Assembly (NCBI RefSeq): GCF_964213995.1
Contig: NC_135809.1
Location: 23,250,001 to 23,314,000, forward strand
Direction of reading: 5' to 3'
From: Mustelus asterias
Lineage: Eukaryota
Length of the DNA stretch: 64,000 nucleotides
The notes beneath the pieces were generated by a model. The model was not told the DNA's origin. It saw nothing but the letters and a program-made list of their open reading frames with translations, and did no database searches. The translations under genes were made by a program, and so were the position numbers. This document shows positions 5,191 through 61,529 of this stretch, piece by piece; position 1 is the stretch's first letter; each line of letters begins with the position of its first letter.

Positions 5191-5774
5191 GGTTTTTATT
5201 TGAGGGACTGTCTCTAACAAAACCATGGGATTTGAAAGGTTACTTTTAGTCCAGAGCTGTAATGTTGTGATCTGAATTTGAATTGTGCAGTCTGATCATG
5301 TGTAATGTATCTAATTTCACAAGATGTATCCATCCCATTCAGCCAGCTTTATTTCTTTAGCTTCGAGCAGTTTCTAACAAAAGAAAATCAAAATTAATAG
5401 AAGAAAATCTGGGGTCAAATATCCAACTTTTATTGAGGTGAAATTGACATTGAATGAAATTGGGACTCGGGGCTGAATTTTAGACGGAGGCAGTGGCCAT
5501 GCCCAGTAGCTGGAAATCAGGTGGAGAAAGCTCGCCTCCGTCAGCTTGGGATACCACGACCAGATTTTACAATTAGCTGCCCAAGGTTGTGGCTTCTGTC
5601 TCCATCAAGCAGGATGTCCCAGCTCTCAAGAGCTGTTAGCCAGTCAGATGGCCAGTATCTCCCCAGTCTCAGAAGCTCCACCAAGAGTGCTCCCACTGTT
5701 AAGATGCAGTCAGTCTACAATCAGGAGTGTCAGTGAAGGATGGAGCTCAGGACACTGCCCCATAAGGAGGGATT

Positions 5775-6477
5775 CCACCCCGAGCCCCAATGGGAGTGAC
5801 CTCGCCCCGAGCCCCAATGGGAGTGACCCCACCCTGAGCCCCAATGGGAGTGACCCCACCCTGAGCCCCAATGGGAGTGACCCCACCCTGAGCCCCAATG
5901 GGAGTGACCCCACCCTGAGCCCCAATGGGAGTGACCCCACCCTGAGCCCCAATGGGAGTGACCCCACCCTGAGCCCCAATGGGAGTGACCCCACCCTGAG
6001 CCCCAATGGGAGTGACCCCACCCTGAGCCCCAATGGGAGTGACCCCACCCTGAGCCCCAATGGGAGTGACCCCACCCTGAGCCCCAATGGGAGTGACCCC
6101 ACCCTGAGCCCCAATGGGAGTGACCCCACCCTGAGCCCCAATGGGAGTGACCCCACCCTGAGCCCCAATGGGAGTGACCCCACCCTGAGCCCCAATGGGA
6201 GTGACCCCACCCTGAGCCCCAATGGGAGTGACCCCACCCTGAGCCCCAATGGGAGTGACCCCACCCTGAGCCCCAATGGGAGTGACCCCACCCTGAGCCC
6301 CAATGGGAGTGACCCCACCCTGAGCCCCAATGGGAGTGACCCCACCCTGAGCCCCAATGGGAGTGACCCCACCCTGAGCCCCAATGGGAGTGACCCCACC
6401 CTGAGCCCCAATGGGAGTGACCCCACCCTGAGCCCCAATGGGAGTGACCCCACCCGAACCCCAATGGGAATGATCCC
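5775..6477. repeat. 27-bp minisatellite, ~25-26 copies of GAGCCCCAATGGGAGTGACCCCACCCT
   Basis: Read directly; interior copies are identical and only the edge copies are degenerate; explains the 9-aa periodic ORFs. Confidence 0.97.
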
Positions 6478-7430
6478 AGGCTAAATCTGCAAGCCCTGGC
6501 AGCCTTGCCACATGGTCTGGCCACCCTTCTGCTCTTAGTAAAATAGCAGCAGTGGGCGGAGGTCCTTACCTCGGTACAATAGGCCTCTCCAAGCCTCAAT
6601 TTTCCTAATAGCAGGCAGATTGCCAGCAATTGGTAAAATACCGGTGGAGGCAGGCAGTTGTCTGGCACAGCTTTCCCCCCCCCCCCCCCCCCCCATCTCC
6701 CCCATCCTATTTTATACCCCACCCCCACCCCCACCCACTAGTCTATTTCTGAGATCAGGACTGAGCAAATTTCTGACTAATGTATGTGTGCCAATGTTCC
6801 TGCACGTGTGTGTTCCAATAAATATGACATAGCATGCCTGTTTAGAAAAGCGAGGCTGGGAAGAGAAAGAGGGAGAAAAATTGTCCTTCACGAAATGAAC
6901 TTAACTCTCAGATTTTGAAGCAACAGGATTATCTGCATCTTGATTTATCATTGACTTAAAATATCGATGTTTAACGTGTGCGTAACTGAGAGATTTGGAT
7001 TTCTTACAGCTGTAAAGCAGAGGGTAACAAAGGAAGAGGGAAAAATATAAAGAAAGGCAACTGGACAGTTTCCTTCCTCATTCTAATTTTAAAAAGGCTG
7101 CACAAGTTGAAAACAAACGGGGCATATTTTGAGGGAAAAGGATTGGAATGTCGGATGGGAGATGAATTTTGGAAACTGGTTGAGGGTGAGCCTCTCGCCA
7201 CCCTCCTTTGTGGGGACTGAGTGCGAGTGAACGAAGGGTTTTGGTTGCCATGAAGCTAAGGACTTGAATGGGTCGCTTAAAGGGGAAGATGTTGGGTTGT
7301 GATGAAGGAGAGGATAAGGTTAGAGGGCTGGGAAGGTGAGACCAAGGGTGTGATAGGAGTGCGTGGGGTATGTGGAAGAATGAATGATTTGGGCGGGGGA
7401 GACACTGAAGACCTCAATTTTCCAGGTCAC

Positions 7431-17755: not shown

Positions 17756-18204
17756 CTATGTGGTCGACATTGATGAACATTGACATGCATGTTGAAGGAA
17801 TCAGGGCTGTGTCTTGATCACTTTTTGTTAAACCGTGGTTGATTACAGTCAGTATAAATTAGCAATTATATTTACCTTTGAGCACTTTATATATTTATTT
17901 ATTTTGAAATCTAAACTGTTAGTGTCTTAACGACTGGAAACCAGGGTTGCAAACTCTGGTTGAAGGTATTCTAGGGGACTTGTCATGTGATGACCTTGAC
18001 TGCATTTCACCTGGCCGCTAGGTGTCAGTCCTTGTGACTTTACTGACCTTTATAACAGTGAGGTCCCCAGCAGTTCAGAATCTTTATCCATGGTTTTGTG
18101 TTAGCAGCAGATCTCTCGAGAACCTCAAAACCACCTGTGAGCACATGAAGAGGGGAACCAATTTCTCCATCTTTGCCCCCATTCATCAGTCTCCATCTCA
18201 TTAT

Positions 18205-18478
18205 TACGAGGGGGCATAACTATAGGGTTCGTGGTGGAAGATACAGGAAGGATATCAGAAGTAGGTTCTTTACGCAGAGAGTGGTTGGGGTGTGGAATGG
18301 ACTGCCTGCAGTGATAGTGGAGTCAGACACTTTAGGAACATTTAAGCAGTTATTGGATAGGCACATGGAGCACACCAGGATGATAGGGAGTGGGATAGCT
18401 TGATCTTGGTTTCAGATAAAGCTCGGCACAACATCGTGGGCCGAAGGGCCTGTTCTGTGCTGTACTGTTCTATGTTCA
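18205..18478 (+). mobile_element. Young CR1 3' fragment
   Basis: RGHNYRVRGGRYRKDIRSRFFTQRVVGVWNGLP; nearly identical to ~36303-36575. Confidence 0.92.
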
Positions 18479-35984: not shown

Positions 35985-36577
35985 GGTTGGAGTTTAAGAG
36001 CCGTGGGGTTATGCTGCAACTGTACAGGACCTTGGTGAGACCACATTTGGAATATTGTGTGCAGTTCTGGTCACCTCACTATAAGAAGGATGTGGAAGCG
36101 CTGGAAAGAGTGCAGAGGAGATTTACCAGGATGCTGCCTGGTTTGGAGGGGAGGTCTTATGAGGAAAGGTTGAGGGAGCTAGGGCTGTTCTCTCTGGAGC
36201 GGAGGAGGCTGAGGGGAGACTTAATAGAGGTTTATAAAATGATGAAGGGGATAGATAGAGTGAACGTTCAAAGACTATTTCCTCGGGTGGATGGAGCTAA
36301 TACAAGGGGGCATAACTATAGGGTTCGTGGTGGGAGATACAGGAAGGATATCAGAGGTAGGTTCTTTACGCAGAGAGTGGTTGGGGTGTGGAATGGACTG
36401 CCTGCAGTGATAGTGGAGTCAGACACTTTAGGAAAATTTAAGCGGTTATTGGATAGGCACATGGAGCACACCAGGATGATAGGGAGTGGGATAGCTTGAT
36501 CTTGGTTTCAGATAAAGCTCGGCACAACATCATGGGCCGAAGGGCCTGTTCTGTGCTGTACTGTTCTATGTTCTATG
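35985..36577 (+). mobile_element. Young CR1 3' fragment with an uninterrupted 170-aa ORF2 C-terminus
   Basis: LYRTLVRPHLEYCVQFWSPHYKKD...FFTQRVVGVWNGLP; tail ttctatgttctatg. Confidence 0.95.
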
Positions 36578-50754: not shown

Positions 50755-51390
50755 GAATGTTCTCGATGGTGGGGGAGTCCAGAACTAGGGGTCACGATTC
50801 CAGGATAAGGGGTAAACCTTTCAGAACTGAGGTGAGGAGAAATTTCTTCACCCAGAGGGTGATGAATGTGTGGAATTCACTACCACGGAAAATAGTTGAG
50901 GCCAAAACGTTGATTTCAAGAAGAAATTCAGGTGGCACGGTGGCACAGTGCTTAGCGCTGCTGCCTCAGCGCCAGGGACCCAGGTTCGATTCCCGGCTTG
51001 GGTCACTGTCTGTGTGGAGTTTGCACATTCGCCCCGTGTCTGCGTGGGTTACCTCCGGTTTCCTCCCACAGTCCAAAGATGTGCAGGTAAGGTGGATTGG
51101 CCATGCTAAATTGCCCCTTAATGTCAGGGGGACTAGCTAGGGTAAATGTATGGGGTTATGGGGATAGGGCCTGGGTGGGATTGTGGTTGGTGCAGACTTG
51201 ATGGGCCAAATGACCTTCTGCACTGTAGGATTCTATGAAATTAGATATAGCTCTTGGGGCTAAAGGGATCAAGGGATATGGGGGAAGGGGGGGAATCAGG
51301 ATATTGAATTTGATGATCAGCCATTATCGTAATGAATGGTGGAACAGGCTTGAAGGGCTGAATGGCCTACTCCTGCTTCTAGTTTCTATA
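50755..51390 (+). mobile_element. CR1 3' fragment split by an HE1 SINE (50930-51237, +)
   Basis: ESRTRGHDSRIRG..RRNFFTQRVMNVWNSLP; gaaatt occurs on both sides of the SINE. Confidence 0.88.
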
Positions 51391-56498: not shown

Positions 56499-56983
56499 AG
56501 TAACAGTTTATTGTGCTTTATCACACATTAAAAGATCAATGTCACATCTCACCACTTGTAAGAACTATCTCATGCTTGGGTCTTTTAATAGCAAGATGAG
56601 AGATTGGTATGCATGAGAGTTTGTGTTTCGTTTTAAAAATGTGTGTGAAAGAGAAAGCAAGGCTGTCATTTTCTGCTGCTTCTGACTTTGAGGATGTGAA
56701 TGGGTCTTACCAGTGGCTGCCGATTTAGGGATAAATTGCGCTTGCAATTAGCATCTAATCAACCACAGGATATGCCTATTTACAACAATTTAACCAGGGA
56801 GCTTTAAAGCAATAGGAGGTGACATACAGCTCATTAACAGCAGACATTATACTGTGCAATCAATGTTACAATGCTCCTATCCTCCTCAGGCCTCCTGTGA
56901 ACACCACCATGGAAGTTACCATTAACATTCCCCCCGAGCTTAATCAATGTACAACATGATCCAGATTGATTTCAAGTTGCTAC

Positions 56984-57277
56984 TGTGGTGAACCATCGTT
57001 GGTTCACCACTGGGGTTGTTATTTTGTTACTGTTGGGCTAGGGTGTTGTTGTTATGGGGGTTGTACTATGTTGTTGGGTTAGGGTGTTTACCTGTCCTAA
57101 GTGTTATCATGGCACACTCCAGTGGGGTTCCGCCTCCGGTGGCAGGGTATAAGACCCCCTGCTCCGGCAGGACCCCTTCAGTCTGAACGGGTGAATTTGT
57201 GTTCGTAGTTTCATTGTTAATGTATTAAAGCCTTCAGTTCTAAAGCCTTGTTTCCGGGTGCTCATTGAGGTGCATCA
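56984..57277 (+). repeat. 5' LTR
   Basis: TATAAG at 57148, Inr-like TCAGT at 57178, ATTAAA at 57224; direct repeat of 60021-60314. Confidence 0.95.
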
Positions 57278-57299
57278 ATTTAATACATTAACTGAGAAT

Positions 57300-58270
57300 A
57301 TGGAACAGATCCTAAAACCGGATCGTCTGACACTGGACCCACGTGCGGTCGGTGCAGCTAACACGTTCGAACATTGGTGGAAGTGCTTCGAGGACTACCT
57401 GGCAGCCTCGGTAGCTATCACTACAGACACTGATAGACTCCAGGTCCTCCACGCAAGGGTAAGCGACACGATTTACCTAGCCATTCGTGCAGCTTCCACT
57501 TACCAGGGTGCCGTCGAGCTCCTAAAGAATAGGTACATTACGCCACCCAACGAGATTCACGCTCGTTATCTCCTCGCTACACGACGTCGGCAGTCGGGCG
57601 AGACCATAGAAGACTACGCCAATGAACTCCTGCAGCTTGCCAAGGGTTGTGACTGTAAGGATGTCTCCGCCGAGCAGTACATGCAAGACCTCGCCCGAGA
57701 CGCGTTCGTAGCAGGGGTAGGGTCCTCGTATATCAGACTTAAATTATTAGAAAAGGGGAAACTCAACTTGACCCAGGCAATGGGGATGGCCGTGAGGTTG
57801 GAGGCGGCGTCGAAGAGCTTGGCGCTGTACCCCGAGGACCACGTGCAGTCAACGTGGTTGGAGCAAACTCTGCTCCCTCCTCGCCCCGCGAACCCGCGCT
57901 CCCAGATCGATTCGCGACGGCGGCAGCTTCAGGTGGCCAGCGATGCTATTTTTGCGGTGGGGCTAAGCATCCACGGCAACAGTGTCCGGCAAGAACGGCA
58001 ATCTGCAGCCAGTGCGGTAAAAAAGGCCACTACGGCAAAGTCTGCAGGTCCAAACCTAAAAACGGCAGTGCAGCTTGTAACCCTCCAGAACGGAGACAAT
58101 CTCCTTCGACGTCGCAGTACCCACGAGGTCCGACCACGTGCGATCCCAGGACGGCGCCATCGTGGCTGACAGAGGAGGAGGAAGACCACCAGGAGTCGCT
58201 GCGCTTGGAGCCCTCGGCCACATGCGATTCATGGGGGCGGCCATCATGGTCCACGACGACTAGGAGCGAC
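57300..58270 (+). pseudogene. gag: gag, frameshifted before the two zinc knuckles and truncated before protease
   Basis: MEQILKPDRLTLDP...RDAFVAG...IRLKLLE; CYFCGGAKHPRQQC and CSQCGKKGHYGKVC lie in the -1 frame. Confidence 0.85.
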
Positions 58271-58298
58271 CAGACAATGACAAAAAAAATAATAGGAT

Positions 58299-59747
58299 TC
58301 ACAAGTCCAGACGGTCTGGAGGACCACACCGACGCTGCGATCTTCTCAACACCGGTTGCGAAACCGGAGCAGGTGCTTGCGGTGGCTCTCTCAAAGCAAC
58401 ATCTGGCTGTCCCCTCAAAGACTCCCGGGCCGGCCGGCCCTGATGAGGCGATGGTGTAGGGGATCCTGGAACGTTTGGTGGTGGTGGTGGTGGTGGTGAT
58501 GATGGTGGCGCCGATCTCCGAGTCTCAGGCAAGCTGTACATGGGAGTAAAAGTGTTATGCACTGGTCCCGGTGCTGACCGCGCCACGTCTGGGGAAGTAA
58601 TGAGGAGTAGTGGATCTGTGACTGGGGGAATAGGAGCGACAGGAGTTGCTACGTCCCCTGCGGGCGCCAGGTCTCTAATGGAGACAGTGTCCTCTCGCCC
58701 GTCAGGATATGCCACATAGGCATACTGAGGGTTGGCGTGGAGGAGTTGGACCGGTTCGACCAAGGGGTCGGACTTGCGAGCCCTCACATGGCGCCGCAGA
58801 AGGACGGGTCCTGGGTACGTCAACCAGGCTGGCAATGAGGTCCCCGAGGACGACTTCCGAGGGAATGAGAACATCCTCTCGTGGGGAGTAGCATTGGTTG
58901 CCGTACACAGGAGGGAGCGGATAGAATGGAGCGCAGTAGGAAGGACCTCCTGCCACCGGGAGACTGGAAGGCCCTTGGATTTCAGTGCCAGTAGGACAGC
59001 CTTCCAGACTGTAGCATTCTCCCTTTCCACCTGTCCGTTACCCCTAGGGTTGTAGCTCGTGGTTCTACTAGAGGCAATCCCGAATGAGAGCAGGAATTGC
59101 CTCAAGTCGTTGCTCATGAACGACGAGCCCCTGTCGCTATGAATATAGCAGGGGTACCCGAACAGGGTAAAAAGCTCACTGAATGCCTTGATGACGGTGG
59201 CAGTCGACGTGCCCGCACAGGGGAAAACAAACGGAAACCGGGAAAATTCGTCTATTATGTTAAGAAAATAGACATTCCGATCCGTTGAGGGAAGGGGGCC
59301 CTTAAAATCTACACTCAGCCTCTCAAAAGGGCGAGTGGCCTTGACCAAATGTGCCCGGTCTGGTCGATAAAAGTGTGGTTTGCATTCTGCGCAAATCCGA
59401 CAACTTCTAGTAACTGACCTGACCTCCTCCACCGAGTAGGGTAGGTTGCGGGCTTTTATGAAGTGGTAGAGTCTGGTGACTCCAGGATGACACAGATCAT
59501 TGTGGAGAGCCTTCAAGCGGTCCTCCTGCATGATGGCGCATGTTCCGCGCGAGAGGGCATCCGAGGGCTCATTGAGCTTCCCTGGACGATACATAATATC
59601 GTAATTATAGGTGGAGAGCTCAATTCTCCACCGCAAGATCTTATCGTTCTTGATCTTGCCCCTCTGCGTGTTACTGAACATAAACGCCACGGATCGTTGA
59701 TCCGTGATCAGGGTGAACCGCTTCCCCGCCAAGTAATGGCGCCAGTG
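58299..59747 (-). pseudogene. pol: Inverted pol fragment: RNase H C-terminus plus complete integrase, stop-free
   Basis: HWRHYLAGKRFTLITDQ; HHCC motif LHNDLCH...CRIC; DDE motifs SVDFKG, HSDRGSSF, NGQVERENAT. Confidence 0.92.
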
Positions 59748-60020
59748 TCATCACCACCACCACCACCACCAAACGTTCCAGGATCCCCTACACCATCGCC
59801 TCATCAGGGCCGGCCGGCCCGGGAGTCTTTGAGGGGACAGCCAGATGTTGCTTTGAGAGAGCCACCGCAAGCACCTGCTCCGGTTTCGCAACCGGTGTTG
59901 AGAAGATCGCAGCGTCGGTGTGGTCCTCCAGACCGTCTGGACTTGTGAATCCTGTTATTTTTTTTGTCATTGTCTGTTTTCATCCACCCCGCCACCTTTG
60001 GTTCCTAAAGGAGGGGTGAA

Positions 60021-60314
60021 TGTGGTGAACCATCGTTGGTTCACCACTGGGGTTGTTATTGTGTTACTGTTGGGCTAGGGTGTTGTTGTTATGGGGGTTG
60101 TACTATGTTGTTGGGTTAGGGTGTTTACCTGTCCTAAGTGTTATCATGGCACACTCCAGTGGGGTCCCGCCTCCGGTGGCAGGGTATAAGACCCCCTGCT
60201 CCGGCAGGACCCCTTCAGTCTGAACGGGTGAATTTGTGTTAGTAGTTTCATTGTTAATGTATTAAAGCCTTCAGTTCTAAAGCCTTGTTTCCGGGTGCTC
60301 ATTGAGGTGCATCA
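60021..60314 (+). repeat. 3' LTR
   Basis: Follows the PPT; ends TGCATCA then TSD GCTAC. Confidence 0.95.
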
Positions 60315-61529
60315 GCTACCCAGTGTAATGCGTCATAAATTGATATTTTGTAATGGAACAATTGATCCTGGACTACATCTTCTGCCTCAGTAGGTGTCAG
60401 GTGTGGGGGAAATGTGGTAAAGTTACTCGAATACGCGCTTTGCTTCATTCCTGCTTCCCCCGCAGGTCAGTTTCTGTCGAAGGATGAGCGCTTGCTGAAG
60501 GAAAGACCAGGTCGGCAGTTTGCACTGCAGGAAAACTGGGGATGAGGCTAAGTCTCATCACCATCAGAAACGGGTTGATTGAACACTTGAACAAGTCTCA
60601 GTTGATCAAAGAGAGTCTTTGTAGATTTATGAAGGTTATATCTAACTAATCTAGTTGCAATTTATTTTGAGGGGGTCACTTTTGTTATGATCTCCGAAGA
60701 GATCAAGGGCTATGGGGAGAGAGCGGGTAAATGGAGTTGAAATCAACCATGATTGAATGGTGGAGTGGACTCGATGGGCCGAATGGCCTTACTTCCGCTC
60801 CTATGTCTTATGGTCTTATGGAGACCGATAACTTTCAAAGAGAGATTTGAACTTTCAGTTACTGGCTGAAAGAATGACATGGCAAAATTTCACTTTAACT
60901 GTAACAAATGACTAAAATTAGGATGAACCAAACATTTCTTATTATGGGCAACTCCCAAATGTCACGGCTCTGCCAGCTCCTCAAATGAGCAATGCACCAA
61001 GCACCATTCCCTCGCCTTCTCCCCATAACCCTGCACATTCTTCCTTTTCAGATAATCCAATTTCTTCTTGAACCTGCCTGCACCACATTCTCAGGCGGCA
61101 CATTCCTGATCTTAACCACTCACTACATTGAAAAGGTTTCTCCTCATGTCTCCACTGCTTCTGCCAATTACCTGCAATCTGACCTCTCAATATCAGTCAT
61201 AGAAGTTTACAGCATGAAAACAGGCCCTTCGACTCAACTTGTCTATGCCGCCCAGTGGCAACAGTTTTCCCCAATCTGTTCATGACTTCAAACGCCTCTT
61301 TTTCAAATCTCAATGATTAATGTGAAACACATTAACACTACATTCAGACTAAAGTGTTGTCCAGCTGTCTTTGACCCCAACTTTCTTGTATGTTAGAAGT
61401 AAATTGACAGTTTACAATACAACTGTTTACAACCCAGTACCTTCAACACCTTTCTAGGCCTTTGGGAGACTTGGAGTCTATTCATTATACACTCGAGAGA
61501 CTGCTGCCATTGTCTCCAAGTGTAAATAT

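Follow-up and report, generated by a model that had tools for sequence, protein, structure and literature searches.

In several Ty3/gypsy retrotransposons, namely Tf1 and Tf2 of Schizosaccharomyces pombe, Tj1, Tosmo and the Tf1/sushi chromoviruses, the primer-binding site (PBS) that follows the 5' long terminal repeat (LTR) pairs with the element's own LTR, as described in available excerpts of the literature (PMC7175516; PMC4600332; 10.1101/2022.12.06.519325; PMC11042837). The present analysis concerns an LTR element near the end of a 64,000-nucleotide stretch of the genome of the shark Mustelus asterias (contig NC_135809.1, positions 23,250,001 to 23,314,000; hereafter, the window), which is a young, internally rearranged Ty3/gypsy copy whose PBS likewise pairs with its own LTR. 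This pairing is conserved throughout the clade to which the element belongs, and the clade very probably primes its own reverse transcription. As in Tf1, a helix adjoins the primer duplex and the PBS is copied onto a cDNA end (excerpts of PMC7175516; PMC4600332; PMC5341516; PMC11042837; 10.1101/2022.12.06.519325), the Tf1 cDNA being reported to retain a DNA copy of the PBS at its 3' end (excerpt of PMC11042837). The Tf1 primer, however, consists of the first 11 nt of the RNA, whereas here a paired stretch of 9-19 nt terminates about 50 nt past the predicted transcription start, often at a poly(A) hexamer. We consider it highly likely that this LTR segment, referred to below as the arm, forms the 3' end of the primer.

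In the window copy, TTTAATACATTAAC (57279-57292) is the exact reverse complement of 57216-57229 and lies one base past the LTR-terminal CA (57277); the same 14-nt arm recurs in the 3' LTR at 60253-60266. The LTR end was placed at 57277 because the 3' LTR, with 3 differences in 294 nt, and the flanking target-site duplication (TSD), GCTAC, agree on it. The arm starts 36 nt downstream of a TCAGT motif, i.e., at +37 to +50 from the predicted start, and the interval from the LTR end to the gag ATG (57300) is free of TGG. An earlier note on this DNA had reported the lack of a TGG-starting tRNA PBS, the exact complementarity, and an arm that includes ATTAAA about 36 nt after a putative start site; all three observations were borne out, the start site itself being a prediction. 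The missing tRNA PBS cannot be ascribed to decay, because window-family copies with a single uninterrupted open reading frame (1,365-1,395 codons) share the leader and likewise have no TGG-type PBS. Altogether, 494 junctions with intact flanks were found in the window family, and the PBS was identical in 96 of 100 among the matches listed. An exact run of at least 14 nt at the LTR-end anchor arose in none of 9,300 shuffles and one of at least 13 nt in 0.011% of them, while 27 of 31 families reach at least 13 nt.

These families were assembled from 80 metagenome loci found with a Gag profile and eight loci in metagenome-assembled genomes (MAGs) found with a polyprotein alignment. Upstream regions numbering 97 were examined (80 metagenome, 6 MAG and 11 from the shark genome); families were picked initially by an exact duplex of at least 8 nt adjoining CA, and crude clustering yielded 31 of them, three from shark and 28 without an assigned host. 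Such a duplex was present in 72 of the 97 regions, with a gap of one base in 68 of these 72, and on long contigs the partner LTR confirms that the CA is the LTR end. The exact-run search missed 25 regions. In 10 of these, the layout is recognizable despite a mismatch or a short contig; the other 15 are truncated, too short or blank. What recurs, with different letters, is an arm ending in A, followed by RCC, U5, CA, one base and the exact complement of the arm. Two sister families from the same genome, whose Gag identity is 52-55%, share the order TATA, 31-33 nt, initiator, 36-38 nt, an arm of 15-16 nt, GCC, about 50 nt, CA, a single A and the complement.

Beyond the selection threshold, at depths 9-12, Watson-Crick pairing was found in 27-30 of the 31 families, versus 0.34-0.71 for swapped partners, and it fell to background by depth 16. 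The 3' base of the arm is A in 31 of 31 families, and it is followed by R (30/31), C (29/31) and C (28/31). A second stem directly 3' of the arm is present in 22 families, compared with a mean of 6.2 and a maximum of 12 in 500 shuffles. G-U pairs occupy 6 of 403 arm cells versus 16 of 88 cells in the U5 stem, a contrast that copying of the PBS from the primer would predict. Arm composition is also biased beyond its A-rich end, with T at -14 in 27 of 31 families and G at -9 in 25, which implies that something besides pairing constrains the arm.

Subfamilies change arm and PBS jointly. Within the window family, one variant (L326) carries several changed bases in both LTRs and, compensating for them, in the leader. 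Copy correction was addressed with 94 copies of a second family (family 2), of which 86 were kept and 8 were dropped for unalignable gag, together with four window-family variants, and the subfamilies proved to be compensated as clades, but changes confined to the leader recur. The check for compensatory change proposed in the earlier note came out in favor of conserved complementarity, with arm and PBS covarying across families and subfamilies. Among loci L229-L322, recurrent T>G and A>C changes affect one TpA of the arm and PBS and are scattered over the gag tree.

The primer could also be viewed through errors of reverse transcription that are preserved as fossils in the genome. In the window family and the two sister families, 36 of 37 matches of one search and 23 of 23 of another were examined, and 33 loci, or 31 independent events after removal of two duplicates, were found in which the leader is replaced by inverted R, mostly together with U3. 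In the window family, six junctions depart from the normal leader immediately past the PBS, and each of them has the complement-extending base; a control position two bases further on gave no such junction. The inverted LTR ends exactly at LTR base 1 in 24 of the 31 events, runs through the polypurine tract (PPT) into pol in two and stops earlier in five. A 5-bp TSD could be read from the flanks in 18 events, indicating that these formed before integration; in five events, an LTR, the spacer base and inverted U3-R, flanked by a TSD, make up the whole insertion. The arm is absent from the direct LTR piece of L331/L366, but the arm complement still follows the LTR end; the simplest explanation is that the minus strand serving as template had the primer attached. 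The inverted-LTR insertions mark the site as a PBS copied on plus-strand strong-stop DNA, and these fold-back products are the strongest evidence that the site is a PBS and that the primer has the arm sequence.

The same insertions bear on where strong-stop DNA ends. A 5'-truncated direct LTR is present in 19 events, 8 of which have their first base between -10 and +2 relative to the predicted cut at the arm end, L407 exactly at it; only one begins near the predicted start, abutting a fragment of a short interspersed element (SINE). Binomial values for this clustering (5e-6 and 6e-5) are indicative only. The truncations may record jumps that had the 3' end of minus-strand strong-stop DNA as their target or their origin. 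Furthermore, in L381/L398 a U5-only minus strand is joined directly to pol. In L409 (4010-4200), a fold-back copy resumes, ahead of gag, with a PBS of the type found in the other subfamily, a junction that suggests co-packaging of two RNAs. At G000:C1:197104862-197139709, four family-2 junctions lie about 5.2 kb apart with a fifth in opposite orientation; this is either a tandem array, similar to those that Tf1 forms by PBS-mediated insertion, or a local duplication.

The pairing also affects a poly(A) signal. In the window family, folding gave an unpaired probability of 0-0.04 for the 5' hexamer and 0.19-0.82 for the 3' hexamer, so that masking of the 5' signal, as the earlier note had proposed, is predicted by modeling for this family. 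The 5' poly(A) signal of HIV-1 is hidden in a comparable way by its poly(A) hairpin. Across the clade, the arm ends in AATAAA or ATTAAA in only 18 of 31 families, which argues that masking is not the conserved function; other arms end in GTTAAA, TTTAAA, TGTAAA, GAAGA or ATAGA and pair equally well, and in 3 of these 13 families a canonical signal lies further 3', beyond the duplex. Masking is thus likely a side benefit in part of the clade, and the dual-function switch that had been suggested is weakened, as nothing indicates a regulated switch. It is extremely unlikely that the duplex serves solely to hide the 5' signal while a tRNA fragment or another host RNA acts as primer. Such a role would suit the deeper burial of the 5' hexamer and the 18 arms that end in a canonical one. 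It leaves unexplained the perfect pairing of the 13 arms that do not, the start of the duplex one base past the LTR in 68 of 72 loci, and fold-back insertions that begin exactly at the PBS. A host primer is further disfavored by the best match of the PBS to tRNA-like host genes, which is 6 nt (18 distinct genes, a small and Thr-biased sample), and by the way in which the PBS varies with each family's own LTR: a single host contains no fewer than seven distinct PBS sequences, each of which matches the LTR that it accompanies.

The account that we favor, and consider probable, is self-priming by the first 50 nt or so of the element's own transcript, released by cleavage. Transcription would begin at the TCAGT motif, and the arm at +37 to +50 is predicted to fold onto the PBS beside the small U5 stem, burying the 5' hexamer in the window family. 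By analogy with Tf1, the element's RNase H might then cleave between AAA and GCC, after which reverse transcriptase (RT) would extend the new 3' end over the spacer and U5 to yield a strong-stop DNA of about 49 nt ending at the cut, a step that the fossil errors support. This DNA could transfer to the 3' R copy by means of the 15-30 nt between the hexamer and the poly(A) site. Plus-strand strong-stop DNA would subsequently copy the primer, giving a 3' end complementary to its own arm, which the fossil errors also support, and occasional fold-back or annealing to another arm would generate inverted-LTR insertions.

The earlier note had left the choice between an internal R segment and the 3' R copy. 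Self-priming from within R is supported, and the 5' copy is favored over the 3' copy without being proven. Priming by the 3' copy would require the RNA to circularize and to lose its poly(A) tail along with about 20 nt, by cutting or by trimming as far as the duplex, before the 3' end of the genome is extended. It accounts directly for an arm that usually ends at the poly(A) hexamer and is compatible with the presence of the arm in both LTRs and with inverted copies that cross the predicted start into U3 unbroken, two of them reaching pol. Nevertheless, it predicts a strong-stop end at the cap, whereas truncations lie near the arm end in 8 of 19 events and near the start in 1 of 19; the 24 of 31 inverted copies that end at LTR base 1 stop where plus-strand strong-stop DNA should; and a local hairpin with a loop of 23-75 nt would be expected to outcompete a contact over 4.4 kb. 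We regard this route as unlikely, though worth keeping in view. Priming in trans by a separate short LTR RNA, produced by early termination at the 5' poly(A) signal or from a solo LTR and trimmed to the arm, would likewise account for the primer sequence and the fold-back products, and potential sources are very numerous (1,714 candidate LTR copies). Its template would keep the 5' R, placing the strong stop at the cap and not at the arm, and it should loosen the match between arm and PBS within each family, which is instead tight across subfamilies; this makes it highly improbable. A strong stop at the arm end fits cleavage of the 5' R copy and neither of these routes, both of which would run to the cap.

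How far the primer extends upstream was addressed by a single copy, L389, from a sister family (TSD AACAG), in which the arm and R are copied, synthesis halts at the initiator and a jump to the 3' untranslated region follows; this end point fits a 52-nt primer reaching back to the cap. Under the plain Tf1 arrangement, transcription would instead start at arm base 1 and the primer would be the extreme 5' 14-16 nt. In its favor, Tf2 is reported to have alternative start sites (excerpt of PMC5341516), and the 28 non-shark families show no fixed TATA-to-arm distance. In the three shark families, however, the TATA box lies 67-70 nt and the initiator 36-38 nt upstream of the arm, which, together with the halt of L389 at the initiator, renders this arrangement quite unlikely.

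Against the favored account, the 5' extent of the primer can be predicted for the shark families only, given the lack of a fixed TATA position elsewhere, and several other observations weigh on the same side. The start site, the cut and the poly(A) site are all predicted positions. Picking families by an exact run of at least 8 nt biases the count of G-U pairs in the arm. Changes confined to the leader are uncompensated in three of the four window-family variants and recur in family 2. The -10 to +2 interval was chosen after the data had been seen, and loss of long palindromes from the genome or its assembly could bias the truncation counts. The end point of L389 coincides with a 3-nt microhomology. 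Finally, L379/L402 and L405/L410 continue through the PPT into pol, an outcome that 3'-end priming or inversion between repeats would also give.

The features of the window copy are collected in Table 1. Its rearrangement (58271-59976), comprising the inverted 3' part of pol and a duplication, sits between LTRs that are 99% identical and flanked by a clean TSD, and it is probably another product of template switching. Each LTR opens with a 26-nt near-perfect palindrome (56985-57010 and 60022-60047).

Table 1. Features of the LTR element, in window coordinates.
Feature	Position	Strand	Remarks
Left TSD (GCTAC)	56979..56983	.	
5' LTR, 294 nt, TG...CA	56984..57277	+	differs from 3' LTR at 3 positions
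TATA-like box	57148..57154	+	predicted start 32 nt downstream; sequence match, putative function
Initiator-like TCAGT	57178..57182	+	predicted +1 = 57180 = predicted primer 5' end; motif kept in three shark families
Primer arm in R	57216..57229	+	3' end = ATTAAA (57224-57229); predicted cut 57229/57230
Second stem adjoining arm 3' end	57230..57271	+	GCCT 57230-57233 pairs with AGGT 57268-57271
Single spacer base, LTR end to PBS	57278..57278	+	
PBS	57279..57292	+	exact arm complement
gag region	57300..58270	+	frameshift-broken in window copy; two CCHC-type knuckles in second frame
Inverted 3' part of pol (RNase H end, integrase)	58271..59747	-	protease and RT missing
229-nt inverted duplication	58271-58499 vs 59748-59976		
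PPT and bases preceding 3' LTR	60007..60020	+	identical in intact copies
3' LTR	60021..60314	+	second arm copy and poly(A) signal at 60253-60266
Right TSD (GCTAC)	60315..60319	.	

Assignment to Ty3/gypsy follows from the order protease, RT, RNase H and integrase between TG...CA LTRs, with a PPT and TSD. The nearest named proteins of the window family are from sharks and rays, while RT-RNase H relatives at 58-82% identity occur in sharks, rays, a sea anemone, a tunicate, nematodes and a damselfly; no relative was found among the viral contigs searched. A profile search of protein representatives gave 7,847 hits, which carried neither names nor DNA and do not enter the counts given here. The best relative of solved structure is the Ty3 RT (E 1e-54), a far weaker match than those within the clade. 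No chromodomain model matched the intact 1,360-aa polyprotein at E up to 0.1. This protein contains two CCHC-type knuckles, a motif that is present in most full-length relatives, and two CCHC arrays in Gag are typical of the Mag lineage; the designation "Mag-like" accordingly reflects Gag architecture as read from the sequence and is provisional. The window family presumably resembles Cigr-1 in size. MAG loci L191-L198 place Gypsy elements of this clade within bacterial MAG contigs, and these occurrences are most likely animal contamination of the assemblies.

Elsewhere, the window contains a tandem array with a 27-nt period (5622-6596) and a 276-nt direct repeat whose copies (18202-18477 and 36298-36573) are 97% identical and 18 kb apart. 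Its only tRNA call (50926-51004) overlaps a copy of an abundant short repeat and is probably a SINE head.

Comparison with described elements places these findings among several forms of priming without a tRNA. Relative to the three-duplex "pretzel" of Tf1, the clade has the central duplex and, in 22 of 31 families, one adjacent U5 stem; unlike in Tf1, the predicted strong-stop DNA is only 24-76 nt, and, unlike in the Tf1/sushi group, the shark element has no chromodomain match. Because of this absence and because the paired part of the primer is predicted to be internal, the clade was not placed in the Tf1/sushi group. Chromoviruses of the Tcn1 type and the plant TAR Copia elements (Houba, Osr-1) are similar in that self-priming has been predicted from at least 10 nt after the LTR that are complementary to the LTR, and they differ in belonging to other lineages and hosts; the excerpts describing them give no position of the primer with respect to the transcription start or the poly(A) signal (PMC6317226). 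The fungal GalEa hairpin site and biv-TRIM are also LTR elements without a tRNA PBS, with inverted repeats that lie inside the internal domain and not, as here, between LTR and leader (excerpt of PMC6934838). The closest architecture is that of the Mag lineage (A, B and C clades) and Cigr-1, which share a single gag-pol open reading frame, two CCHC-type knuckles and the lack of a chromodomain; excerpts of papers on these elements (PMC6238403; PMC2774666) contain no passage on self-priming. In the excerpts searched (including PMC3601003, PMC3587641 and PMC10886601), priming in this clade is nowhere described; the search did not extend to Repbase, GyDB or key older papers, so that an earlier description is possible.

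In the literature found, in part as excerpts, self-priming in animals is credited only to Tf1/sushi chromoviruses. Whether self-priming arose separately from that of Tf1 in a widespread animal Gypsy clade outside the chromoviruses, with a conserved cut between A and RCC that would free a capped primer of about 50 nt and at once remove the 5' poly(A) signal from the template, and with enough errors among thousands of genomic copies to reveal both primer ends and the strong-stop point from DNA alone, is in our judgment evenly balanced when taken as a whole. If this is true, a second and very abundant animal clade with a different geometry would alter the mapping of PBS types on the Gypsy tree and bear on whether hairpin priming is ancestral or has repeatedly re-evolved. 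The arrangement also accounts for the failure of PBS-dependent annotation to recognize or correctly assess these elements. Priming from a self-complementary PBS is itself known from Tf1; what is added here is a fossil map of primer and strong-stop ends, and such errors provide a route to these ends in organisms that lack an experimental system.
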